DNA from: a virus
Taxonomy: Duplodnaviria; Heunggongvirae; Uroviricota; Caudoviricetes
Virus record (IMG/VR): IMGVR_UViG_2648501669_000003
Coordinates: 1-9,884 of that record
Reading direction: 5' to 3' (one strand)
Length of the DNA: 9,884 nt
The position numbers were made by a program, and so were the translations under genes. Below are positions 1-9,884 of this stretch, piece by piece. Within the stretch, counting starts at the first letter, position 1, and each line of letters starts with the position of its first letter. The notes under the pieces were generated by a model. That model made no database searches. It saw only the letters and a list, made by a program, of their open reading frames with translations, and had not been told where the DNA came from.

Positions 1-27
1 CGATGTTGGAAACCCCATAAAACCACA

Positions 28-45
28 ACCCGCATGGAGGCGGGT
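28..45 (-). terminator. Possible stem-loop immediately 3' of the methyltransferase stop codon
   Basis: Inverted repeat acccgc(28-33)/gcgggt(40-45) with a 6-nt loop; on the minus strand it is followed by tgtggttttatggggttt, which is U-rich but interrupted. Weak intrinsic terminator candidate. Confidence 0.3.
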
Positions 46-1095
46 TTAATTGCACATTGCCGAAATTTCACCGACTGTCTGTTCAAACCGTTCAGTTTCA
101 AGCTCAACGCCGATTACCCGACGCCCCAGCGCCATCGCCGCTTTTATTGTTGACCCGGATCCCATAAAGAAATCCGCAACCAAATCACCGGGGTGACTGC
201 TGGCCTCTATTATCTGCCGCAACATATCCGCCGGTTTTTCGCAGGGATGTTTGCCCGGATAATACTGCACAGGCCTGTGCGTCCAGACATCCGTATACGG
301 AACGGCAGCTGATACGGAAAAATAACGCCGCAAAGATTTGTACTCTTCCAGCAGGCTGGCGTATTGACGGTTCAGTTCACTGTATGCGCTGACCAGCTGG
401 AGGTGTGGCTTTTCCAGTTCCCCGCGCTGATGCTTTTCTGCTGCAACACGCGCAAACAATGCCTGCAGTTTTCTGTAATCAGCTTCGTTCGGTAACTGCC
501 ACTGACTGGCACCAAACCAGTGCGAAGCCATATTTTTCTTTCCGGTGGCTTCCGCTATCTGTTTTGACGTTATCCCCAGTGATTCCCGCGCATCACGAAA
601 GTAAGAAATCAGCGGGGCCATGACGTGCTGTTTTAGCTCGCGCCCCTTTGCCGCATAGCCGTCATTTTTGGGCTGGTATGGCCCCTGATAATGTTCTGCA
701 AACAGAATGCGTTCTGTTGCCGGGAAATACGCCCGCAGGCTTTCCTTGTTGCATCCGTTCCAGCGTCCGGACGGCTTCGCCCAGATAATGTGGTTCAGCA
801 CATTAAAGCGTTCACGCATCATGATTTCGGTGTCAGATGCCAGGCGATGACCACAGAACAGGTAGAGACTTCCGGCAGGTTTCAGTACCCGCCAGAATTG
901 CGCCAGACACTGATCCAGCCATTTCAGGTAATCATCGTCGCCCTTCCACTGGTTATCCCAGCCCTCGGGCTTCACTTTAAAGTATGGCGGGTCTGTGACT
1001 ATCAGATCGACAGAGTTTTCCGGCAAGGTCTGGATAAATTCCAGGCAATCAGCGTTGATTAACTCACAACTGGATATTTTTACAGTATTAGCCAT
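46..1095 (-). CDS. DNA methyltransferase, beta-class (N6-adenine or N4-cytosine), orphan
   Basis: 349-aa ORF with ATG at 1095 and TAA at 46-48. Catalytic DPPY motif near the N-terminus (LIVTDPPYF) and AdoMet-binding FxGxG motif near the C-terminus (DFFMGSGST); this IV-then-I order is typical of beta-class amino-MTases. No adjacent restriction endonuclease gene is visible. Confidence 0.85.
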   Translation of the reverse strand: MANTVKISSCELINADCLEFIQTLPENSVDLIVTDPPYFKVKPEGWDNQWKGDDDYLKWLDQCLAQFWRVLKPAGSLYLFCGHRLASDTEIMMRERFNVLNHIIWAKPSGRWNGCNKESLRAYFPATERILFAEHYQGPYQPKNDGYAAKGRELKQHVMAPLISYFRDARESLGITSKQIAEATGKKNMASHWFGASQWQLPNEADYRKLQALFARVAAEKHQRGELEKPHLQLVSAYSELNRQYASLLEEYKSLRRYFSVSAAVPYTDVWTHRPVQYYPGKHPCEKPADMLRQIIEASSHPGDLVADFFMGSGSTIKAAMALGRRVIGVELETERFEQTVGEISAMCN

Positions 1096-1194
1096 AGATC
1101 AATAAGCACTTCTCTGATAGGCTCATACCGCTTTTGCGCAAAGCAGATGGCTGGCAGGTGCCGCTAACACCCACCAGCCGCCCATTACCACAAA

Positions 1195-1219
1195 TAAAAA
1201 AGCCTTCACTGCGGAAGGC
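1195..1219 (-). terminator. Rho-independent terminator overlapping the stop codon of the small HTH ORF
   Basis: Minus-strand hairpin GCCTTC(1219-1214)/GAAGGC(1207-1202) with a 6-nt loop, followed by a TTTTTTA run (1201-1195). Confidence 0.5.
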
Positions 1220-1403
1220 GTCTGTAACAACCGAACTGATAATCTGCCAGACCCGCCATAACAAGCTGAGTCAGTATTAACTGGCAGCGTTCGCGTGAAA
1301 GGTACGTATTCTGCGCAATTTCCCCGACGGTCGCCGGTTCGGTGACGCTTAATTCATTAAACACCACTCTGGCAGTTTCGGTCATATCCTGCTGTTTTAG
1401 CAT
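1206..1403 (-). CDS. Small hypothetical protein with helix-turn-helix-like segment (65 aa)
   Basis: The ORF-track frame 1206..1541 begins at a TTG inside the upstream terminator, so the start was moved to the in-frame ATG at 1403, which has GGGA about 9 nt upstream. An ATG at 1385 is an alternative. The segment TVGEIAQNTYLSRERCQLILTQL looks like an HTH. Flanked by intrinsic terminators on both sides. Confidence 0.4.
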   Translation of the reverse strand: MLKQQDMTETARVVFNELSVTEPATVGEIAQNTYLSRERCQLILTQLVMAGLADYQFGCYRRLPQ

Positions 1404-1526
1404 GTCTTTTTCCCTTTTCTGGTTAACGTGACATACCAATAGCTCTTGTCGAAAAAGCCAGCAAGCTGAAAGACCGGTATTCGCAACCATCAGCGCGTTT
1501 AACGTCCTGTACCGTTTTTCAGGCAT

Positions 1527-1549
1527 AAAAAAAACCCGCAAAAAGCGGG
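1527..1549 (-). terminator. Rho-independent terminator about 80 nt downstream of the Q-like gene (tR'-like)
   Basis: Minus-strand RNA reads GCCCGC-UUUUU-GCGGG followed by eight U (plus-strand A-run 1527-1534). Its position after a Q-like gene matches the lambdoid pR'/tR' arrangement. Confidence 0.6.
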
Positions 1550-1628
1550 CTCTTTCAAATGTCCATGTCTGCTATTCGCCTCGCGGTACAGCTTTGCGAA
1601 GCGTACCGGCATTGAAGCAGTTTTTACG

Positions 1629-2195
1629 TCAAAAAGCAATAACTTTTTTCTCTATACCAAAAGCCATAACCATTGGTTTGTACAAAATAAATTCTGCCAC
1701 CTTTAGCCAATGCTCAATGCGTCTTTCACAGGTTCTTAAACTCCATTCCGGGTGTGCATCATTCAGCAGTTCAGCCATTTTGCGCTTAGTCATCCCCCGC
1801 CCCACATAACGCTGACTCAGGACATTGAGCAGCCCGGGATAACCGGCCAGGGCTTCACCAATAACCCTGTCGATTATTAACGCCTCTGAATCGGTACAAT
1901 GCGCCAGCCAGCTCTTTTGCTTACCATTGATCATCTCTCGCAAAAAAGCCTCAAGTTCAGGTTTGTCCAGACCCGCTTTTTTCATCCTCCGGAGCGCCTC
2001 GTTAATTGCCGTTTTTGTCAGCTTTTTAGAGGTCAGTAATTGGTTGAACATATTTCCCGTCTTACCGCCGCCAATATACGACCAACGCCCCCACATACGC
2101 AGTTTCCCCTGGAGCCAGACACTTTCCAGCGTTTTCAGGCGTAAATGCTCACCGCTTTTGCCTGTAATTTCCGGGTATATCATATTTACGCTCAC
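1629..2195 (-). CDS. Putative late-gene antitermination protein (Q-like)
   Basis: 188-aa ORF directly downstream of rusA and upstream of an intrinsic terminator, which is the canonical lambdoid position of Q. The annotated start is a GTG overlapping the rusA stop (GTGA); an ATG at 2183 is an alternative. Family assignment is positional plus vague recall, not verified. Confidence 0.55.
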   Translation of the reverse strand: MSVNMIYPEITGKSGEHLRLKTLESVWLQGKLRMWGRWSYIGGGKTGNMFNQLLTSKKLTKTAINEALRRMKKAGLDKPELEAFLREMINGKQKSWLAHCTDSEALIIDRVIGEALAGYPGLLNVLSQRYVGRGMTKRKMAELLNDAHPEWSLRTCERRIEHWLKVAEFILYKPMVMAFGIEKKVIAF

Positions 2196-2551
2196 TCACT
2201 TTCAATTTTGTAAATCTTCACGCCCAACCGACCACCAGGAACGACCTGACCGCGCACAATATTGATTTCATCAAACTGCTCGTCGTCGATAAGCAACCGC
2301 GCATGTGTCAGTGCATCCAGTGGTGCTTTCAGAATATTGTCCAGGTCACGACGGCGCTTATCCGGCGGCTCTGCAATGATCTTTATCGCCAGCCTTCCGG
2401 ACAGGTTTAATTTCAGTCGCTGCTGGCGAACAATAAGTGCCACATCCCGGCGATAACGCTCACCGGCTTTTGATACAAAATATGTGCTGCCACGACGACG
2501 CCAGTAGGTGTTCACCGTCGGCGGGTAAGGCAAAACAAACTCTATACGCAT
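2192..2551 (-). CDS. rusA: Holliday-junction resolvase RusA
   Basis: 119 aa with ATG at 2551 and GAGG SD 8-11 nt upstream. Recognisable RusA family pattern (VLPYPPTVNTYWRRRG ... DKRRRDLDNILKAPLDAL ... DDEQ), including the conserved RRRDLDN acidic catalytic region. Confidence 0.85.
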   Translation of the reverse strand: MRIEFVLPYPPTVNTYWRRRGSTYFVSKAGERYRRDVALIVRQQRLKLNLSGRLAIKIIAEPPDKRRRDLDNILKAPLDALTHARLLIDDEQFDEINIVRGQVVPGGRLGVKIYKIESE

Positions 2552-2563
2552 CAGTAACCTCTT

Positions 2564-3613
2564 TTACCCGAGCACACCGGTTGCAAAGGCGTGATCAAGA
2601 AAACGAAAAATTAAATCAACCTGAGAACCATGCTTTTCTTCGAACGCCAGCGGATCCGCATGAAGTTCGTTGTGATGCTCCCGGCACAGCGGTAGCGTGA
2701 AAATATCGTGGGATTTTGTCCCCATTCCGCCCTGACCATGACCAATCAGGTGATGGGGATCGTCGGCTGGCTTACCACAACACGCACACGGCTGTGTCTT
2801 CACCCAGCGCGTGTATTTCTCATTTATCCAACGGCGACGTTTAGGTCGCTTCATGAAAGATTCCGGAGACTCCGGATCTACGGCAATGCTGACCACCGTC
2901 TTTTCCTGTGGTGCGTTCTGTTGCTGGTGGATGTGAGGCAACGGCGCAAGATTTTTTGTGCGCTGCTTCAGTATGCTGGTGGCGGTCTGCTCTCCCGGTA
3001 TGATGTCGCTTTCGCGGTACACCGAGCGGATTTTTTCCGCACGTAACCCCAGAGAACGACGTAATACTGCCTCCGGTAGCGCGTCCGCCAGCTGATTGCG
3101 GACCGCCCACCAGGATAATTCAGCCAGAGATAATTCACGCTCCTGCGTACCGCTTATTGCGTGACCGATGACGTCAATCATCCATGCTGACAGGTTTTGA
3201 TGAGCAAGTTGCTCGAGTGATTCGGATGTCTGGTCACGCAGCTGGTTGTCGCAGTGCCAGCACAACACCATCGCGCCGGTACCGTAACGATGTATGACGG
3301 TTTCACTGTGATGGTAGTCGCCATGAGGCCACTGGCAGGATTTGACATGACGCAACAGCCAGTCAGACAGTGCACCAGCGCCGCCAGCAGCACGAATCAC
3401 CCGTTCGTTGCTGAAAAATGGCAGTAATGATTTATCTTCCGCCAGCGGCTGGCGAACGGCAGGAACGACTCCGGACGGCAGACCGCGCATGCTTTTTGGC
3501 TCCGGTTCAACCAGCACTCTGCCGTTATGGAATACCTGCATGGATTCACGACCTGGCTTAACGATAACCACCCCAAGTTCCGGTACCGGAACAGGTCGAA
3601 GCAATACCCGCAC
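2564..3613 (-). CDS. DUF968 family protein with C-terminal HNH-like nuclease motif (YdfU-like)
   Basis: 349 aa with GTG start at 3613, GGAGG SD 4 nt upstream, 1 nt after the upstream stop. The C-terminus carries a Cys/His cluster (CACCGKPADDPHHLIGHG ... LCREHHNELH) consistent with an HNH fold. Same position relative to hok and Q as ydfU in K-12 Qin (from memory). Confidence 0.75.
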   Translation of the reverse strand: MRVLLRPVPVPELGVVIVKPGRESMQVFHNGRVLVEPEPKSMRGLPSGVVPAVRQPLAEDKSLLPFFSNERVIRAAGGAGALSDWLLRHVKSCQWPHGDYHHSETVIHRYGTGAMVLCWHCDNQLRDQTSESLEQLAHQNLSAWMIDVIGHAISGTQERELSLAELSWWAVRNQLADALPEAVLRRSLGLRAEKIRSVYRESDIIPGEQTATSILKQRTKNLAPLPHIHQQQNAPQEKTVVSIAVDPESPESFMKRPKRRRWINEKYTRWVKTQPCACCGKPADDPHHLIGHGQGGMGTKSHDIFTLPLCREHHNELHADPLAFEEKHGSQVDLIFRFLDHAFATGVLG

Positions 3614-3614
3614 G

Positions 3615-3887
3615 TTACCTCCAGATGCGTTGCTGGAATGTGCGGGACGGACGCGGTGGGCGTTCGGAATAAGGGAGTCTGACGTAGATTATCCAGTGAC
3701 GATAATCGAGGCTGAGGGCTTTCCTAAACTCATACCCACGTCTGCGGTAGTTCTGAATCAGCCATTCGGCCTGTTCTTCAGTGCAGGGATCGTGCTGATA
3801 CCAGTCATATTTGAATGCGTGTGAACGCCGCCCATGCCGGATGGCAAGGTCGGTATCAGAATTGTGAAATTTGGTTTTGTGCGCCAT
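3615..3887 (-). CDS. Hypothetical protein (90 aa), in the position of rem in Qin
   Basis: ATG at 3887 and TAA at 3615-3617; its 3' end carries the SD for the DUF968 gene, suggesting coupling. No recognisable motif. Confidence 0.55.
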   Translation of the reverse strand: MAHKTKFHNSDTDLAIRHGRRSHAFKYDWYQHDPCTEEQAEWLIQNYRRRGYEFRKALSLDYRHWIIYVRLPYSERPPRPSRTFQQRIWR

Positions 3888-3954
3888 CTGTTTTCTCTGC
3901 TGGCGCAGCAGGTGTCAGGTGTTCAGGCTGACGTGCGAATTGTAAACCAGAATG

Positions 3955-3985
3955 CCAGGAAAAAACAAAACCCGCCGAAGCGGGT
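3955..3985 (-). terminator. Rho-independent terminator of the hok transcript
   Basis: Minus-strand hairpin ACCCGC(3985-3980)/GCGGGT(3975-3970) with loop UUCG, followed by UUUUGUUUUUU (3969-3959). Confidence 0.6.
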
Positions 3986-3990
3986 TAAGT

Positions 3991-4005
3991 GCGGGTGCGT
4001 TGAGG
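3991..4005 (-). promoter_or_regulatory. fbi-like 3' element of hok mRNA, complementary to the transcript 5' end
   Basis: Plus-strand 3991-4005 gcgggtgcgttgagg is the reverse complement of plus-strand 4368-4381 cctcaagcacccgc apart from one extra base. Within a single minus-strand transcript these would pair 5' end to 3' end, as in the tac/fbi fold-back of hok mRNAs. A separate perfect 9-bp hairpin lies at 4026-4047. Confidence 0.45.
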
Positions 4006-4054
4006 ATGCCTGACTCATCAGAGGTGGCGAGGGATTTCTCCCTCGCCTGGTCTC

Positions 4055-4210
4055 TTACTCCTCAGGTTCGTAAGCTGTGAAGACAGCGACCTCCGTCTGG
4101 CCGGTTCGGATTCGTACCTCACAGAGGTCTTTCCTCGTTACCAGTGCCGTCACTATGACGGTTAAACAGATGACAATCAGGGCGATTAACATCGCCTTTT
4201 GCTGCTTCAT
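4055..4210 (-). CDS. hokD: Hok/Gef family type I toxin (51 aa), matching HokD/RelF
   Basis: ATG at 4210 with AGGAG SD 9-13 nt upstream and TAA at 4055-4057. Product MKQQKAMLIALIVICLTVIVTALVTRKDLCEVRIRTGQTEVAVFTAYEPEE has the single TM helix and conserved Cys/Glu of Hok proteins and matches my recollection of E. coli HokD. Confidence 0.8.
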   Translation of the reverse strand: MKQQKAMLIALIVICLTVIVTALVTRKDLCEVRIRTGQTEVAVFTAYEPEE

Positions 4211-4267
4211 AGCCTGCTTCTCCTTGCCTTTCGGCACGTAAGAGGCTAACCTACATGTGTTCAGCAT
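4055..4267 (-). CDS. mok-like overlapping reading frame (translational coupling frame for hok)
   Basis: ATG at 4267 with GAGG about 9 nt upstream; the frame runs through and is co-terminal with hok, as in hok/mok loci. Whether it is translated is not determinable from sequence. Confidence 0.35.
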   Translation of the reverse strand: MLNTCRLASYVPKGKEKQAMKQQKAMLIALIVICLTVIVTALVTRKDLCEVRIRTGQTEVAVFTAYEPEE

Positions 4268-4367
4268 GGATTGGCCTCAGATTAATGTTAAGCGTCTTGC
4301 AGGACGCGTAATGTTAACTGGGGCTTTTCTCTATCTGCCTTTTGGTGTTCATGCCTGAGGCAGATAG

Positions 4368-4420
4368 CCTCAAGCACCCGCAGCAATTCTACTTAACTCT
4401 CCTTTTCCCGCAAACCGTTT
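4368..4420 (-). promoter_or_regulatory. Putative hok promoter and 5' end (tac-like element) of hok mRNA
   Basis: Minus-strand TAGAAT -10 candidate (plus 4386-4391) about 6 nt upstream of a GCGGGUGCUUGAGG element (plus 4368-4381) that is complementary to the 3' element at 3991-4005. The -35 is weak. Confidence 0.35.
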
Positions 4421-4500
4421 TTATCCCCATCGGCAAATCGAATACACCACCAGCGCCACCGCCATCGCAATTCCTACCGTTGTGAATGCTTCAGGCCAGC

Positions 4501-5244
4501 TCACTTATCCCCCTCCTCATGACCTCCCCGCTCCCACGGGATGACCAGATCAACATCCACCTTCGCAGCAGCTATTTCCTCCTGTGGAAGGGTGCCATAA
4601 AATTTACGAAGACTTTTCGACATTCTCTCGAAAAAATTAGCCATGTATAAAACACCATCCCCCGCATCCTCTCTGATGCACGAACTTGTATACGCCTTTA
4701 GCAAATCCAGAAACGATATACGTAATGCTCCAGCACACGTATCAAATAAATCCTCATCCTGATCACCTTCAATGTAGGGAATTATCATATACGGCGGCAC
4801 TGATACCCACACCTCAACATCATCAGCACAACTAACACTGATACTCGCAGAGAACGATTCAGGGACATCATCCTCTGGTTCAGAGCCAGTTAATGGCACG
4901 CTCCATTCCTCACCAGTCCAGACGAATTCTTCCAGTAGCTCAACCCCATCGTTCGGTAACACTTGTGCTGGCGGCGCTGCGTAAAGTGGTGTTATTTCTG
5001 CCCGAAAGTCACCTATTTCATGCAGTCGCACCCACCGTTCGGCTTCTACTTTGTCAGAATACAGAGCAGTGAACGTATTATATTCATTGTCAATTTGCGT
5101 GAAGGTTGCCTTCCACGCCACTGGCTCTGCTTCCAGTGATGCCAGAGCAATCCGTGCCACTTCCATTTGTTCGCTACGAGTAAGCCCGTTTTCAAGCGGA
5201 TTTTTAATGAACAATTCAATACGTTCTTTGGTGATAGCGTTCAT
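4501..5244 (-). CDS. Hypothetical acidic protein (247 aa), paralog of the upstream gene; unknown function
   Basis: ATG at 5244 with AAGGA SD, starting 3 nt after the upstream stop. Shares an N-terminal module with the 140-aa protein (RIALASLEAEPVAW ... PLYAAPPA). The C-terminal two-thirds is strongly acidic (EPEDDVPE, EGDQDEDLFD, HEEGDK). Confidence 0.75.
   Translation of the reverse strand: MNAITKERIELFIKNPLENGLTRSEQMEVARIALASLEAEPVAWKATFTQIDNEYNTFTALYSDKVEAERWVRLHEIGDFRAEITPLYAAPPAQVLPNDGVELLEEFVWTGEEWSVPLTGSEPEDDVPESFSASISVSCADDVEVWVSVPPYMIIPYIEGDQDEDLFDTCAGALRISFLDLLKAYTSSCIREDAGDGVLYMANFFERMSKSLRKFYGTLPQEEIAAAKVDVDLVIPWERGGHEEGDK
5111..5160. repeat. Nucleotide-level paralogous segment (copy A) shared between the two adjacent genes
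   Basis: About 38 of 50 nt identical to 5517-5566 by hand alignment (core ctgcttccag[t/c]gatgccag). Encodes the conserved LASLEAEPVAW motif in both proteins. Confidence 0.5.
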
Positions 5245-5247
5245 GTG

Positions 5248-5670
5248 TCATTCCTTAACCTGCAACTGCTTCTTAACCAGTTTACGTAGATGTGCCACAG
5301 CCATAGAAAGAGTTTCCACCGCTCGTTTATCCAGCTGTGGGGACAGAGACACCAGTTCGTTTATTGCGATCTCAATTCCCTGTGCCTGCACTGTGGGAGC
5401 TGGCGGCACACGATACAGCGGAATTACACGACGCGGGTCTGCGTATTTATCTGGAGGACAAGGTAATAAATAACCTAAACCAATTTGCTCAACATCTCGC
5501 AGTTCCTCGTCATCAGTCCATGCAACTGGTTCTGCTTCCAGCGATGCCAGCGCGATACGAAACACATTGGCAAGCAGGCTGCTTGAAGATTGGTTATCGT
5601 GCGCCGGGTCGCTCAGGAAACCAGTGATGAATGATTTAATTTCCGCGTTTTCTCTGGTAGTAGTGGTCAT
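5248..5670 (-). CDS. Hypothetical protein (140 aa), paralog of the downstream acidic protein; unknown function
   Basis: ATG at 5670 overlapping the upstream stop (ATGA), GAGG SD. Contains the shared module (VFRIALASLEAEPVAW ... PLYRVPPAP) and an S-rich segment. Confidence 0.75.
   Translation of the reverse strand: MTTTTRENAEIKSFITGFLSDPAHDNQSSSSLLANVFRIALASLEAEPVAWTDDEELRDVEQIGLGYLLPCPPDKYADPRRVIPLYRVPPAPTVQAQGIEIAINELVSLSPQLDKRAVETLSMAVAHLRKLVKKQLQVKE
5517..5566. repeat. Nucleotide-level paralogous segment (copy B)
   Basis: Counterpart of 5111-5160 at about 76% identity over 50 nt. Confidence 0.5.
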
Positions 5671-5876
5671 TTGTTAATCCTCAAAACTTTATGCCCGGGC
5701 GCAAAAGCACGTGTTTTGTCTTTACTTATTCGCCACCCGTCTTTACGGGCTTCTTTTGCACAACCAGACCATGACGTACCGATATACTCACCGAAGTCTG
5801 GCACTGGATATACACCTTCCGTACACTGGCGGCAGTCACAATAGAGATGCATGGTGTAACTTGCGGCAATAGCCAT
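5667..5876 (-). CDS. Small Cys-rich hypothetical protein (69 aa)
   Basis: ATG at 5876 with strong AAGGAG SD 7-12 nt upstream. Contains CDCRQC and a further Cys (SGC), a possible zinc-binding motif. Stop overlaps the start of the 140-aa gene. Confidence 0.65.
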   Translation of the reverse strand: MAIAASYTMHLYCDCRQCTEGVYPVPDFGEYIGTSWSGCAKEARKDGWRISKDKTRAFAPGHKVLRINK

Positions 5877-5887
5877 ATCAGTCTCCT

Positions 5888-6265
5888 TTAGTGCGCATAT
5901 AACAGTGATTTTTCCAGCGGTTTTGCTCTCCTGCGCTCTCCCCCAAGCGCATAACGTGCTTCTACCGGGTCTTTGTCTTCATATTCATAATTGACGCTTT
6001 TAACCATCGCTACACAGCACTCATTGCAGCATCTATAGGACATAAGCTCGCCATCAAATTTCCATGTTGTGCTGCGGTGTATTTCACCCTTTGAGATTTT
6101 TCCGGCGCATATGTGGCATGTATATTCACCGCGAGAGGTAACGATTTTATTCGATAACTCAATATCGAATGGCGCACCAAAATCACCTTCAAAAAGATAA
6201 AAATCCAGAGCGTCTCCTAAATCTTGTTTACTGTATCTCTGCTGCTCTTTTGTGGTAATGGTCAT
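5888..6265 (-). CDS. Cys-rich hypothetical protein (125 aa), putative zinc-binding
   Basis: The ORF-track start at 6355 is a TTG that overlaps the upstream gene, so the ATG at 6265 was used (AAGGA SD; 1 nt after the upstream stop). Motifs CHIC and CCNECC. Confidence 0.6.
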   Translation of the reverse strand: MTITTKEQQRYSKQDLGDALDFYLFEGDFGAPFDIELSNKIVTSRGEYTCHICAGKISKGEIHRSTTWKFDGELMSYRCCNECCVAMVKSVNYEYEDKDPVEARYALGGERRRAKPLEKSLLYAH

Positions 6266-6266
6266 T

Positions 6267-6485
6267 TCAGTTTTCCTTATATGGATTAATTTTATTGTGC
6301 AGTGCGTTGAACGGGGCCCATACAACGTCGTTATACAATTCAATAACGGGCTCAATTACTTTTCCGATTCCCCATACCAGAATTAAAGGGGATATCGGTA
6401 TCATCAATACGATAAACAGAATGAGAAACAGAAATTCTGTCGCTCTACTTTTTCGCGGATATTTTTTTCTGAATAATGTAGTCAT
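6267..6485 (-). CDS. Small hydrophobic (single-TM) hypothetical protein (72 aa)
   Basis: ATG at 6485. Basic N-terminus (RKKYPRKSR) followed by a hydrophobic stretch FLFLILFIVLMIPISPLILVWGIG typical of a membrane helix. The SD is weak or atypical. Confidence 0.55.
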   Translation of the reverse strand: MTTLFRKKYPRKSRATEFLFLILFIVLMIPISPLILVWGIGKVIEPVIELYNDVVWAPFNALHNKINPYKEN

Positions 6486-6517
6486 TTCTTACCGCCCTTT
6501 CGGGCGGCCCCCTGACA

Positions 6518-6730
6518 TTAATCGTTGTGATAACTCATAGCTTCATTTGCAGCATCAACTGGATCAACATCCCACCAGCAATAATTTGGGTCGGCTCCTT
6601 CAGGTGTCCACGGCTCTAATTCATTTTTTGCCGCATTCTCGTCGCCAGTAATTTTAAAAATCTGCTCAGAAAATTTCCTCACCCACTCGTTATATTTTTC
6701 CGCATTAATGGTTTTCTGTGTATTTAACAT
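6518..6730 (-). CDS. Hypothetical protein (70 aa)
   Basis: ATG at 6730 with GGAGG SD 8 nt upstream and TAA at 6518. Acidic, Trp-containing C-terminal half. Confidence 0.65.
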   Translation of the reverse strand: MLNTQKTINAEKYNEWVRKFSEQIFKITGDENAAKNELEPWTPEGADPNYCWWDVDPVDAANEAMSYHND

Positions 6731-6780
6731 AGATATACCTCCAGTTAAGGATTTGATTTTATTTACAGTGCTAAATTTAT

Positions 6781-7137
6781 TTATTCAGTTCTGGATTTTG
6801 TCGCCCTGCGTATCCGCGCTTTCGCGTTACGCTCAATCTGAATTAACTTTTCTATATTTTTCCGTCTTTCCTGTTCCTCCTGGCGCAATAGCCTTACATC
6901 ATCTGCCAGTCTGGTTTCTCTTTTCGCCACTGAGAGCATCCAGTCAAACGGCTCCACAACTGCACCGCAGATTTTACAGCGGACCTGACGCTCTTTTTCG
7001 TCAACCCGGACAGAGGCGTGATGGCAATATGGTCTTTCCGATGGCTCATAAAGAAAATTAACCTGATTACGTGGGTCATCCTCTTTTGCCGGAAATAAAA
7101 CAATATTACTTAACTCATCTTCTGGTTTTATTTCCAT
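6781..7137 (-). CDS. Hypothetical protein (118 aa) with zinc-ribbon-like motif and basic coiled-coil tail
   Basis: Start moved from the ORF-track ATG at 7179 to the ATG at 7137, which has a strong AGGAGAGGAG SD immediately upstream. Motif CHH-x14-CKIC, then a Lys/Arg/Glu-rich helical tail. Confidence 0.6.
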   Translation of the reverse strand: MEIKPEDELSNIVLFPAKEDDPRNQVNFLYEPSERPYCHHASVRVDEKERQVRCKICGAVVEPFDWMLSVAKRETRLADDVRLLRQEEQERRKNIEKLIQIERNAKARIRRATKSRTE

Positions 7138-7606
7138 ACTCCTCTCCTTTGATATGAATGCCAGCAACACGTAGTTCATGTTCTAAGTCAGCCAGATAAA
7201 GCCAGCAGCCATTTTCTTTAGGTATCATGACGTGGCGCTCATCATCATTTATCGGATGTCCATATCGAAGGCCGTAGCGAGTCGGCAAATGAACTTCCCG
7301 CGCTTCCAGCTCTTTAATGCGTTCCTCGAGTTCGTAGACTCTGCATTGTTCTTTATCATCAATCAGATATAACCCAAGACATTCGCTTTCTACCCAGCCA
7401 CCGAAATCATGATCGTAACGCTCACACGAAAACTCACCATCGCTGTCCTTTGTTGGAATGGTGTAACTGTCTAATGGGCCGCCATACGTCGGCACATTGC
7501 CCAATTTCGGATGCTCAATCCACATGAAAAATGCACGTCCGGTTATAGGACAAATATCTGGTCGCCATTGGTTACTCACTGTTTGCCTCCTGGAAAATAA
7601 CTGCAT
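7115..7606 (-). CDS. Hypothetical protein (163 aa)
   Basis: The ORF-track start at 7645 is a GTG with no SD, so the ATG at 7606 (GGAG about 10 nt upstream) was chosen. The start is uncertain and overlaps the DUF4406 3' end by 35 nt. No recognised family. Confidence 0.5.
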   Translation of the reverse strand: MQLFSRRQTVSNQWRPDICPITGRAFFMWIEHPKLGNVPTYGGPLDSYTIPTKDSDGEFSCERYDHDFGGWVESECLGLYLIDDKEQCRVYELEERIKELEAREVHLPTRYGLRYGHPINDDERHVMIPKENGCWLYLADLEHELRVAGIHIKGEEYGNKTRR

Positions 7607-7871
7607 GCCCCAGTTTCTCCGCCAGTGCCAGTTCTGCCTTAGCACCTGCTGACCGCTGCCAGCCTTTCAGCATGTAAATCGCATCCACACAACGAATCAT
7701 TGCCATGCAAATATCCATGTAGTGTGGCTGTGTCAGCCCGTCCGGAAGTACTGCCGGGCTTAAGACTGTATGCCCTTCCCGTTTCAGTTCCTCTTCCGCA
7801 TTGTGGAACGCCTCACGGTTGAAATTTTTATACCCGGTCATTGGACCGGCGATATAGACTCTCACCCTCAC
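7572..7871 (-). CDS. DUF4406 / nucleoside 2-deoxyribosyltransferase-like protein
   Basis: 99 aa with GTG start at 7871 overlapping the Ren-like stop (GTGA) and AGGAGG SD 7 nt upstream. N-terminal VYIAGPMTG motif and C-terminal IYMLKGWQRSAGAKAE segment are characteristic of this family. Confidence 0.75.
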   Translation of the reverse strand: MRVRVYIAGPMTGYKNFNREAFHNAEEELKREGHTVLSPAVLPDGLTQPHYMDICMAMIRCVDAIYMLKGWQRSAGAKAELALAEKLGHAVIFQEANSE

Positions 7872-8263
7872 CCCATCACCTCCTGAAAGTTTCCCCGATA
7901 AAACGCCAGCACTCGCTGCATAACCTCACTCTTCCGGCACTCGCGACAGATTATGTTCTGGCTCCTGTCGTAGCGGCGTATCTCTCCGTCTGGTAACTTC
8001 CGAATCAGCGTCTGGTCAGTTGTTTTCTCCGGTGTCTTACGCCATTCACGATACGCCTGCTCTGATGCAAAAACACCGTATTCCCCGGACATGTATAAAT
8101 CACCACAAGCCAGTACATCCACAAGGCAGCGTCGGACCGAATGCCAGCCTGCTCCCGTCGCTCTCTCCAGTTGCGACATCGTCATGCGTCCATTTTTGCG
8201 TACCAATCCGATAATTCGTGCCTTCAGCTCTTCCCGCTGTTCGGGTGTAAAAGGTTTCGCCAT
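7868..8263 (-). CDS. Ren-like protein
   Basis: 131 aa with ATG at 8263 and GGAGGG SD. The C-terminal segment ICRECRKSEVMQRVLAFY resembles my recollection of lambda Ren (FKECRQSAAMKRVLAVY), and the gene sits immediately after the P-like gene, as ren does in lambda. Confidence 0.6.
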   Translation of the reverse strand: MAKPFTPEQREELKARIIGLVRKNGRMTMSQLERATGAGWHSVRRCLVDVLACGDLYMSGEYGVFASEQAYREWRKTPEKTTDQTLIRKLPDGEIRRYDRSQNIICRECRKSEVMQRVLAFYRGNFQEVMG

Positions 8264-8292
8264 AAACCCTCCCGGTAAAATTACTTATCAAC

Positions 8293-8958
8293 TCAAACAA
8301 AACCTGCCGCTTTCCTGCGTTCATATTCCTGTTTCAGCAACTCAATTGGCGTTGGTCCCGCAGGACGTATGGGTGCTGCCAGTTGCCTACGGACGGGTGG
8401 AACACTCAGTCCGTTACCAACATGCTTTGCCCATTTCGCCAGTTGCCGTTCTGCAAGCCGTTTTAACTCCCCTTCGGTCATCTGGCGCTCAATCCCCTTT
8501 GAACGCATCTCGAGACAAATGTGATACAGCACAGGCTGAGACCACGGGTATTTATCGCTTCCGTCGTATCGCCAGGACTCGTTGCGCCAGCGTCGGTACT
8601 CCTCCATCACGTTATCCACCGTCAGACCAAATGGATTTGCCCCGCTCTCCGAAATCAGCGCCACAAACTCAGCCAAGTCCGGAGGCCATGTTTCACCTGC
8701 CCTGCAACGGTCCATGCACTGGCGGCAGACCAGCCGGATTTGCTGCTCAGTCATCGCGCCAATCTGTGCAATCCAGAGCTTCGAAGGTGCGGCCCCGTTC
8801 TTCTGGGTCCAGCGGTTCGAATAAACCTCCCCCATGAGTTCCCACAGCTTCCACGCCGTTTCCGTCGCTGATAAATCCATTTTCACGTTCCCACTGCTCA
8901 CGTGCTGCCCGAATTTCCTGAACTGCCCGTGATGCGGTGCCACCTGGTGCGGCTGCAT
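8293..8958 (-). CDS. Replication protein P-like (DnaB helicase loader); start uncertain
   Basis: The C-terminal 150 aa align by eye to lambda P (PPDLAEFVAL ... YPWSQ ... ELKRLAERQ). ATG at 8958 has a GGGGGTGA SD but makes a 212-nt out-of-frame overlap with the O-like ORF. Alternative in-frame ATGs lie at 8880 and 8754; the latter overlaps the O-like stop by 8 nt. Confidence 0.7.
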   Translation of the reverse strand: MQPHQVAPHHGQFRKFGQHVSSGNVKMDLSATETAWKLWELMGEVYSNRWTQKNGAAPSKLWIAQIGAMTEQQIRLVCRQCMDRCRAGETWPPDLAEFVALISESGANPFGLTVDNVMEEYRRWRNESWRYDGSDKYPWSQPVLYHICLEMRSKGIERQMTEGELKRLAERQLAKWAKHVGNGLSVPPVRRQLAAPIRPAGPTPIELLKQEYERRKAAGFV

Positions 8959-9787
8959 GGCTCACCCCCTTGCTGACTGGTTTAACCTGCGCCCTGACGT
9001 GATTTACGTGACGGGCGAATTTCTGCTCCCACTGAACCTGCGTAAATACTTTCCCCTCCGCTGCCCAGTAGTCCCGGAAGGCGGCAAGTTCAGCAGGTGT
9101 AAATTCCGGCTCCGGCAAAGCCATCCCCCACACCGCAGCCCGTCGTCGAAAATCCCGTGACGGATGCCAGCTATCGGTCATCGGAAATTTTCCGATGGGT
9201 TCGCTCAGGCCATCCAGGAATACGGGTGGCACTGCCTGTAACGACAAAACTTCCTGCTCACTGGTCGGAGCACTCTCGCGTGCATTATGTGTGGGGTTTA
9301 GATCTTTGGGTTCCTTTGGGTTCCGTGATCCGTTTTTGGGTGTCTTTGATGGAAAATTTGGGTGTCTTTGGTTATTTTCCATGCAGCTAAGAGTTCCGTT
9401 TTTGGGGCTGTTTTGTGCTGAAACATAACCATTTTCGGTACTGTTTTTATTAACAGTACCAATTTTACCCACCTTTAAAGACTCCCGTTTTTGGGTGTAT
9501 TCAGGCTCGGCAACGCTTTCTTCTACACCGATAAGTCGGTACACTACGATTTGCTTTGTTCGGCCTTTTCTCTCACCGGTATCAACAATTAACCCAATCT
9601 CCATCAGGTGTCGTAAGCTGTCCTGCACAGTCTTTTTGTTCAGCTCCGTTACTTCTGCCAGTGCAGATACAGACGGGTATGCACACAAATCGGCACCGCA
9701 CATATCAGCAAGCCAGGTCAATACTGACTTACTGGATGAACTGCCGGTTTTCACCTTTTTAGCCCATCGTAGTGCATCGATACTCAT
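8747..9787 (-). CDS. Replication initiator (O-like): N-terminal wHTH DNA-binding domain fused to a DnaT-like C-terminal domain
   Basis: The ORF-track start at 9862 is a TTG, so the ATG at 9787 (MSIDALRWAKK, GGGG upstream) was used. The N-terminus looks like a winged HTH. The C-terminal segment GKFPMTDSWHPSRDFRRRAAVWGMALPEPEFTPAELAAFRDYWAAEGKVFTQVQWEQKFAR matches the C-terminal region of E. coli DnaT as I recall it. The central linker is low-complexity and encoded by the iterons. Confidence 0.75.
   Translation of the reverse strand: MSIDALRWAKKVKTGSSSSKSVLTWLADMCGADLCAYPSVSALAEVTELNKKTVQDSLRHLMEIGLIVDTGERKGRTKQIVVYRLIGVEESVAEPEYTQKRESLKVGKIGTVNKNSTENGYVSAQNSPKNGTLSCMENNQRHPNFPSKTPKNGSRNPKEPKDLNPTHNARESAPTSEQEVLSLQAVPPVFLDGLSEPIGKFPMTDSWHPSRDFRRRAAVWGMALPEPEFTPAELAAFRDYWAAEGKVFTQVQWEQKFARHVNHVRAQVKPVSKGVSHAAAPGGTASRAVQEIRAAREQWERENGFISDGNGVEAVGTHGGGLFEPLDPEERGRTFEALDCTDWRDD
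9304..9499. repeat. Iteron array (putative phage replication origin) embedded in the initiator gene
   Basis: Direct repeats: ctttgggttc twice in tandem (9304-9313, 9314-9323); ccgtttttggg at 9330-9340, 9396-9406 and 9485-9495; tttgggtgtctttg at 9335-9348 and 9357-9370. An AT-rich block follows at about 9410-9480. This is analogous to ori-lambda inside gene O. Confidence 0.6.
9437..9460. repeat. 9-bp inverted repeat with 6-bp spacer inside the AT-rich part of the putative origin
   Basis: ggtactgtt-tttatt-aacagtacc; a perfect palindrome in the AT-rich segment. Confidence 0.4.
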
Positions 9788-9884
9788 ACGAACCCCTGGC
9801 AGACATTTGTTTATCTGCAAAGTAATATTGGTATTGCTGACGATACGCACGCTTGAAAGCAATGGCTTTTTCTATAAGCTCGTC
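9759..9884 (-). CDS. Partial CDS: C-terminal about 41 codons of an upstream gene, truncated by the window edge
   Basis: Minus-strand frame open from the window edge to TAA at 9759-9761 (DELIEKAIAFKRAYRQQYQYYFADKQMSARGSYEYRCTTMG). It has more G-initial codons than the alternative TTG-extended O frame and overlaps the O-like start by 29 nt. Identity unknown. Confidence 0.3.
   Translation of the reverse strand, partial: DELIEKAIAFKRAYRQQYQYYFADKQMSARGSYEYRCTTMG

Follow-up and report, generated by a model that had tools for sequence, protein, structure and literature searches.

What is encoded by two tightly packed phage genes that lie directly upstream of a hok locus, close to where the Qin prophage of Escherichia coli K-12 carries the relBE toxin–antitoxin (TA) genes? 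The question is raised by positions 1 to 9,884 of the IMG/VR virus record IMGVR_UViG_2648501669_000003 (Caudoviricetes), a stretch of 9,884 nt that we refer to as the window. The two genes, both on the minus strand, encode proteins of 140 and 247 amino acids (aa; 5670..5248 and 5244..4501, respectively). An earlier note, made from the sequence alone, had described them as a pair of acidic paralogues of no recognisable family occupying the slot of relBE, and had proposed a novel TA-like or abortive-infection pair, or a DNA-mimic anti-restriction protein with a paralogous partner, as candidate functions. Here we report that the two proteins are probably adjacent members of a large family of mosaic accessory proteins, early and non-essential, that are encoded by temperate phages of the lambdoid and P22-like kinds. 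The family is sprawling, uncharacterised and long catalogued, and to find two of its members in a mosaic nin region is ordinary; what is new is the payload combination within this known family.

A shared architecture in a large phage family

The paralogy of the two products is confirmed by BLASTP (35% identity over 106 aa, E = 8e-9). Most of the identity falls in a PLYxxPPA motif and in the segment RIALASLEAEPVAW, which is the same at 14 of 14 residues and which we term the island; the leaders and middle segments of the two products are different variants of one architecture. The nucleotide repeat seen earlier is real as well, with its register corrected by one base: it pairs 5112..5154 in the 247-aa gene with 5517..5559 in the 140-aa gene (43 nt, 84% identity, both on the minus strand) and is the sole direct repeat within 4400-5800. 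Seven of the 14 codons differ between the copies, and because all seven nucleotide differences are synonymous the island is constrained as a peptide. The description of the pair as acidic proved apt for one member: the 247-aa protein is strongly acidic (isoelectric point (pI) 4.23, net charge -28; residues 99-247: pI 4.05, net charge -23), but the 140-aa protein is merely mildly so (pI 5.23, net charge -4).

A family can be named for both. The N-terminal module is of the type found in P22 EaA, HK620 HkaE and the E. coli proteins annotated as ‘DUF551/DUF550 domain-containing’, and both window proteins match PHROGs 60, 660, 5117 and 3323, all of which are function-unassigned (E = 4e-20 for the 140-aa protein against PHROG 660; E = 1e-21 for the 247-aa protein against PHROG 60). 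When 5.8 billion proteins were searched with the 247-aa sequence, 4218 matched; four of these (P0001-P0004) cover 87-100% of the query, and the remainder, most of which bear the name ‘DUF551 domain-containing protein’ or ‘Eaa protein’, align with the N-terminal ~100 residues alone. According to tblastn the module starts the P22 eaa gene (E = 9e-13), HK620 hkaE and many genes of P22-like phages. Of 5426 complete E. coli genomes, 1666 contain the leader DNA of the 247-aa gene (5117-5244); it occupies 2640 places in them, at most eight per genome, and is annotated there as DUF551, DUF550 (dATP/dGTP pyrophosphohydrolase) or hypothetical. The identical 140-aa protein occurs on 79 contigs, and a form with 88% identity is widespread in Salmonella (1333 indexed blocks of the collection). 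Neither protein found a match in Pfam (at E ≤ 1), in NCBIfam, in PADLOC or, by sequence, in PDB, and DUF551 itself (PF04448) has no Pfam match in either. The literature on EaA/DUF551 function yielded no data on the family; work on Ea22 alone turned up.

Alignments show how these proteins are built. Each has four parts: a helical leader of ~35-45 aa comes first, then the near-invariant IALASLEAEPVAW island, then a small variable unit flanked by the brackets PVAW and PLYxxPP, and lastly a C-terminal payload that can be exchanged. The leaders fall into at least five unrelated variants, every one ending in the invariant island, which is followed by one of several middle units bracketed by PVA(W/Y) and (L/F)(Y/F)xxPP; some proteins carry two such units in tandem. 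The C-termini include DUF551, DUF550, an ‘Eaa’ tail, the acidic domain and a short helical tail, and leaders, middle units and C-termini are found in all combinations. Across an alignment of 28 sequences W44 and Y88 are invariant, and I32-A43, P86, L87 and P92 are conserved in at least 90%. The similarity first noticed between the two window proteins is the architecture of the family.

In both window proteins the IALASLEAEPVAW island precedes a unit that has PLYxxPP at its end, and both are encoded in the early accessory (ea/nin) region; other members of the family adjoin int/xis. The 140-aa protein comprises a leader with two predicted helices and the island, after which a PVAW...PLYRVPP unit rich in proline leads to a short helical tail; AlphaFold2 (AF2) places helices at residues 3-20, 32-45, 92-108 and 115-137, and residues 47-91 are of low confidence. 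The 247-aa protein combines an EaA-type leader and island with a PVAW...PLYAAPP unit of beta-beta-alpha-beta form and with an acidic C-terminal domain that is rare. Its N-terminal module, modelled with a predicted local distance difference test (pLDDT) score of 56-76, shows helices at 6-14, 23-37 and 65-76 and strands at 43-50, 57-62 and 80-87, the first and last strands being the PVAW and PLY brackets. The window proteins therefore share with P22 EaA, HK620 HkaE and the DUF551-DUF550 proteins the leader, the island, the PVAW...PLYxxPP unit, the ea/nin location and the mosaicism of cassettes, whereas the 247-aa protein ends in an orphan acidic domain, the 140-aa protein ends in a short helical tail, and neither carries DUF551 or DUF550.

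As a side observation, another nin open reading frame (ORF) of 119 aa in related loci (L001, 5699-6058; L009, 4435-4794) carries a KPVAWRYRY...ALFTAPPVP unit without a leader, so that the PVAW...(L/F)(Y/F)xxPP unit is more widely used as a building block among prophage accessory proteins.

Cassette exchange at the island and the recurrent tandem

How the 247-aa gene is put together can be seen from its breakpoints, obtained by blastn of window positions 6400..4000 against the fetched loci. Nine loci that carry a 191-aa gene downstream of the 140-aa gene (L009-L012 and L014-L018) share 98-99.5% identity with the window from 6400 (or 5889) to 5118, are unrelated to it over 5117..4504 and resemble it again from 4503, just past the stop codon. 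In the 191-aa protein the identical leader (MNAITKERIELFIKNPLENGLTRSEQMEVARIALASLEAEPV) is joined to a different middle unit and tail, and most matches to the leader DNA in E. coli end at 5117. An exchangeable cassette, made up of the middle unit and the C-terminal domain, is in this way delimited at 4504..5117 on the minus strand by the breakpoints 5118 and 4503. A second arrangement is a fused single gene of 254 aa (L001, L003-L008 and L020), which matches the window over 5670..5517, the 140-type leader, and then jumps to 5154 and continues to 4000; its product corresponds to the first 51 residues of the 140-aa protein followed by residues 45-247 of the 247-aa protein. The sharp breakpoints at the island indicate that the 247-aa gene is a chimera joined there, whichever way the exchange ran. 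It appears to unite the leader typical of a 191- or 231-aa second gene with the body of the 254-aa single-gene form, and the island would be the stretch at which homologous recombination swaps cassettes. The locus thereby shows, to the base, how a cassette is exchanged within a gene at an island that is under constraint as a peptide.

The combination of the 140-aa and 247-aa genes was observed in the window, in L013 (99.1% identical over 6400..4000), in L019 (IMG/VR UViG_2740892423_000028; 100% identical over the compared 6400..4081) and in the metagenome contig L023, which has the same tandem. The rarity of this form raises the question of whether the chimera is a neutral by-product of recombination without a selected function of its own, and the treatment of the acidic-domain DNA by the Prokaryotic Genome Annotation Pipeline (PGAP), which places no feature over it in four of four complete genomes with the fused form, could be taken in the same sense. 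However, the frame is intact in each copy examined, the domain and its motifs are conserved in distant stand-alone homologues, and the few differences among close copies, too few for a dN/dS test, do not favour replacements; we consider a neutral by-product very unlikely. With respect to PGAP, the complete genome L001 (NZ_CP080223.1, 4497-5351) illustrates what happens: the intact 254-aa ORF is called as a 151-nt ‘incomplete’ pseudogene at its 5' end. The mis-call of the fused form looks systematic and caused by the mosaic joint, and the exchange of cassettes inside such genes would account for the errors that annotation pipelines make with them.

Wherever its context was read, the 140-aa gene has a family member exactly 3 nt downstream, always with the same leader but with a different body. 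Of the ten E. coli places shown, nine have a second gene of 191 aa and one (L013) has the 247-aa gene; in Salmonella the second gene encodes 231 aa, with another middle unit and tail (three places shown, representing 24 contigs read). A tandem whose first gene is constant and whose second varies is thus recurrent, and it could denote a two-component unit in which the 140-aa protein hetero-oligomerises through its N-terminal module with the payload-bearing paralogue and regulates, stabilises or targets it. The invariable spacing would suit such a unit, as would the AAGGA Shine-Dalgarno sequence of the 247-aa gene, which sits within the 3' end of the 140-aa gene. On the other hand, the 140-aa gene and the second leader form one conserved block of DNA (98-99.5% identical) that ends at the island, so that linkage suffices to explain the co-occurrence. 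Moreover, the acidic body is found without the 140-aa gene in the fused 254-aa form (8 contigs, 4 complete genomes, one IMG/VR contig), and thousands of leader-bearing proteins occur singly. A two-component unit is consequently a tentative idea that we regard as doubtful.

A rare acidic domain and its possible role

The acidic C-terminal domain of the 247-aa protein spans residues ~114-247 (4504..4905, minus strand) and represents an orphan family whose members also exist as stand-alone proteins. The earlier statement that it matches no described family stands, as Pfam, PHROG, NCBIfam, PADLOC and PDB sequence searches were all empty. An exhaustive phmmer search of 1.84 billion cluster representatives recovered eight clusters, six of them stand-alone proteins of 122-159 aa with 37-54% identity. 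The stand-alone homologues, 33-54% identical overall, share the motifs GSEP(E/D)D..P, YM.(I/A)P and D.G.G.L..A..F, and the core of ~120 aa has a net charge between -15 and -18 in all seven members of the domain family. The domain is a genuine, conserved one, and it is rare: among 5426 complete E. coli genomes its DNA is present in four, every one a pig isolate. With one stand-alone homologue as the query, tblastn gave no match in 50,697 phage records (INPHARED) or 72,556 plasmids (PLSDB), a scan of one-per-species GTDB genomes for the domain pattern found none, and a homologue search with the C-terminal domain alone returned a fragment and nothing else. A metagenome scan added one stand-alone copy and one more copy of the window prophage region.

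To judge by the surroundings of its stand-alone copies, the domain is one of the early accessory cassettes on which temperate enterobacterial phages draw. The copy L022 begins at the stop of a phage ParB-like gene, homologues of which (73% identical) reside in temperate phages of E. coli and Klebsiella; in the one annotated phage examined, cI, the ParB-like gene, small ORFs and EaA stand beside an oppositely oriented integrase gene. The homologue P0244 has a tail in common with an Ead/Ea22-like protein (L025) that adjoins xis/int. This 310-aa Ead/Ea22-like protein contains a looser PVAL...LFTAPQ segment, outside the PVAW...PLYxxPP pattern. In another stand-alone homologue, P0247, the last ~40 aa, located after the acidic core, weakly match the UBA-like family PF14555 (E = 0.001), which is unusual for what is presumably a phage protein. 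We do not read the D-x-GDG-x-L motif as EF-hand-like, since inspection of the alignment shows that the calcium-ligand positions vary across the domain family.

What might such a domain do? The reading as a DNA mimic, proposed earlier, or as another decoy that inhibits host restriction or defence, is favoured by the retention of a net charge of -15 to -18 across diverged homologues, by the location among early-expressed accessory genes, and by the fast exchange and patchy spread of the cassette (the four E. coli genomes mentioned above). Like T7 Ocr and the ArdA mimics, the 247-aa protein is a small, very acidic early protein of a phage or mobile element; unlike them, it has no detectable sequence relation to any PDB chain, known mimics included, and no usable fold model was obtained. 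Furthermore, phage early proteins are commonly acidic. The C-terminal domains of lambda Ea22 are acidic yet act on the lysis-lysogeny decision (PMC10834534), and we deem a DNA mimic or similar decoy improbable.

Lambda Ea22/Ead (PF13935) is the closest studied architectural analogue. The protein is early and non-essential, forms a tetramer, and joins a conserved N-terminus and coiled coil to mosaic, mostly acidic C-terminal domains, one of which, in a Stx-phage variant, is DUF551; it favours lysogeny via an as yet unidentified host partner (PMC10834534). Conserved N-termini with portable acidic C-termini are common to Ea22 and the window. In contrast, neither window protein matches Ead_Ea22 or has a predicted coiled coil, the pro-lysogenic role has been shown for Ea22 alone, and a separate Ead_Ea22 gene is present in neighbouring loci.

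By analogy, the conserved N-terminal module could be a common handle by which the window proteins oligomerise or dock on a partner that they share. The acidic domain of ~120 aa might then be the payload, binding or decoying a basic, possibly nucleic-acid-binding, host or defence protein, and the 140-aa protein would be a payload-less member that may co-assemble with its payload-bearing paralogue. In its fullest form this scheme would make the orphan domain a new anti-defence or host-takeover effector, acting alone or on a swappable EaA-type handle with IALASLEAEPVAW, and the 140-aa protein its co-assembling partner; we hold this to be unlikely. If it were true, phages could swap effector payloads by recombination on a shared docking or oligomerisation device.

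Several points weigh against our interpretation of the pair as mosaic family members built from a handle and a payload. The roles of handle and decoy are argued solely from analogy and charge, and the frequent acidity of phage early proteins applies here as well. The AF2 models are poor, with mean pLDDT values of 48.5 and 58.5 for the two proteins and below 50 for the C-terminal domain; Foldseek searches of BFVD and PDB with them gave no credible match, and the low confidence makes these fold searches uninformative. Finally, the presence of a paralogue always directly after the 140-aa gene could mean functional coupling and not mere linkage. As a rare and conserved domain without a family assignment, the acidic domain would be a reasonable candidate for anti-defence or lysis-lysogeny screens.

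The hok neighbourhood and the operon

The position of the pair, two genes 3 nt apart (spacer 5245-5247) upstream of a hok locus, is as the earlier note had described it, with ORFs, spacer, HOK_GEF and sok matches all present. The mok/hok frame with its sok match, a landmark outside the pair, occupies 4055..4379 on the minus strand (Pfam HOK_GEF, E = 3e-23), and the sok RNA family is matched at 4205-4379 (Rfam RF01794, 118.6 bits). The order in K-12 Qin is relB-relE-hokD-rem-ydfU-ydfT, in agreement with the earlier note. As in Qin, hok, rem, ydfU (DUF968) and Q are found downstream of the pair; in contrast to Qin, the pair upstream is unrelated to relBE(F) in sequence and in kind. Similarity between the window and the K-12 Qin locus (L021) starts within the hok coding region (4224..4000 versus 5289-5065), nothing in the Qin locus corresponds to the sok/mok region of the window from 4224 up to 4379, and in Qin relE ends 71 nt upstream of hokD. 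The relB-relE-hokD-ydfV arrangement occurs in 1172 genomes, and hokD-type loci in 4723 genomes at 9990 places. Among six loci from a spread sample of the latter, hokD is preceded by DUF262 and a hypothetical protein, a large AAA ATPase, a DUF4209 protein or plain small nin ORFs, and relBE was found upstream of hokD in none of the six; relBE is cargo confined to the Qin arrangement.

The idea that a different two-gene module holds the TA slot in the window is contradicted, by the standard that the earlier note itself had set, by sibling prophages, in which cargo co-exists with the tandem. Loci of the L009 type carry, between DNA corresponding to window positions 4503..4423 and 4391..4000, a 1.16-kb insert with a KilA-N/BstA_C gene on the opposite strand (L009, 6081-7238), which is a BstA-type abortive-infection gene. 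In L011 and L017 the same ~80 nt past the second gene are followed by opposite-strand genes for a helix–turn–helix protein, ParE and ParD (L011, 6080-7200); the ParDE-bearing loci are without hok. A cargo insertion point can therefore be located between the second gene and hok, at ~4392-4422 of the window, where it is empty. Because siblings hold the tandem plus cargo at this separate point, the pair replaces no TA module and adjoins a cargo hot spot, which in other prophages receives BstA-type genes, ParDE or, in Qin, RelBE.

These observations bear directly on the proposal of a novel TA or abortive-infection module in the slot of Qin relBE. The genes are adjacent, tightly spaced and beside hok, and the hok-proximal hot spot does harbour BstA-type genes, ParDE, DUF262 and AAA ATPase genes in other prophages. 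Yet the siblings keep such cargo apart from the tandem, the two partners are paralogues, the second gene is exchangeable (191, 231 or 247 aa) and its body occurs on its own elsewhere, and the pair has neither a match to any toxin, antitoxin, DNA-binding or PADLOC model nor, in a simple consensus scan, a promoter-like site. On the grounds of paralogy, exchangeability, solitary occurrence and the lack of a toxin, antitoxin or defence signature we reject this reading, which is largely refuted and which we rate as exceedingly improbable.

The order of genes in the window resembles that of a Qin/Rac-like lambdoid prophage, and every recognisable gene is on the minus strand. A DnaT-like replication initiator (9862..8747) and a lambda-P-like gene are followed by small, densely packed nin-type ORFs that extend to the pair, the last of them encoding a Cys-rich protein of 69 aa (5667..5876; PHROG 926, E = 9e-37). 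Downstream of hok follow a rem-like ORF, DUF968/YdfU, RusA, antiterminator Q and a DNA methyltransferase. The stop of the 69-aa gene and the start of the 140-aa gene overlap in an ATGA, which favours operon read-through. Simple consensus scans of 3800-6600 detected no sigma-70-like promoter site, and no minus-strand terminator-like site upstream of the terminator-like hairpin that follows hok at 3986..3969. The two paralogous genes are tightly packed and probably translationally coupled, and this arrangement suggests that they are most likely read within the early-right (pR) operon and not as an autonomous bicistron.

Three further features of the window may be mentioned. The ORF 5888-6355 (minus strand), upstream of the 69-aa gene, has a weak match to the zinc-ribbon-like DUF7576 (E = 3e-4, below the Pfam cut-off) and also matches PHROG 19515. 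The longest ORFs of the lambda-P-like (8293-8958) and DnaT-like (8747-9862) genes, both on the minus strand, share ~210 nt; the P-like gene is called in related loci as forms of 140, 153, 180 and 221 aa, and its true start is therefore probably internal. Lastly, a plus-strand ORF of 140 aa (5051-5473) runs antisense across the junction of the pair; it is almost certainly a spurious shadow of the coding strand, and recurs in L013 and L023 only because the DNA there is the same.

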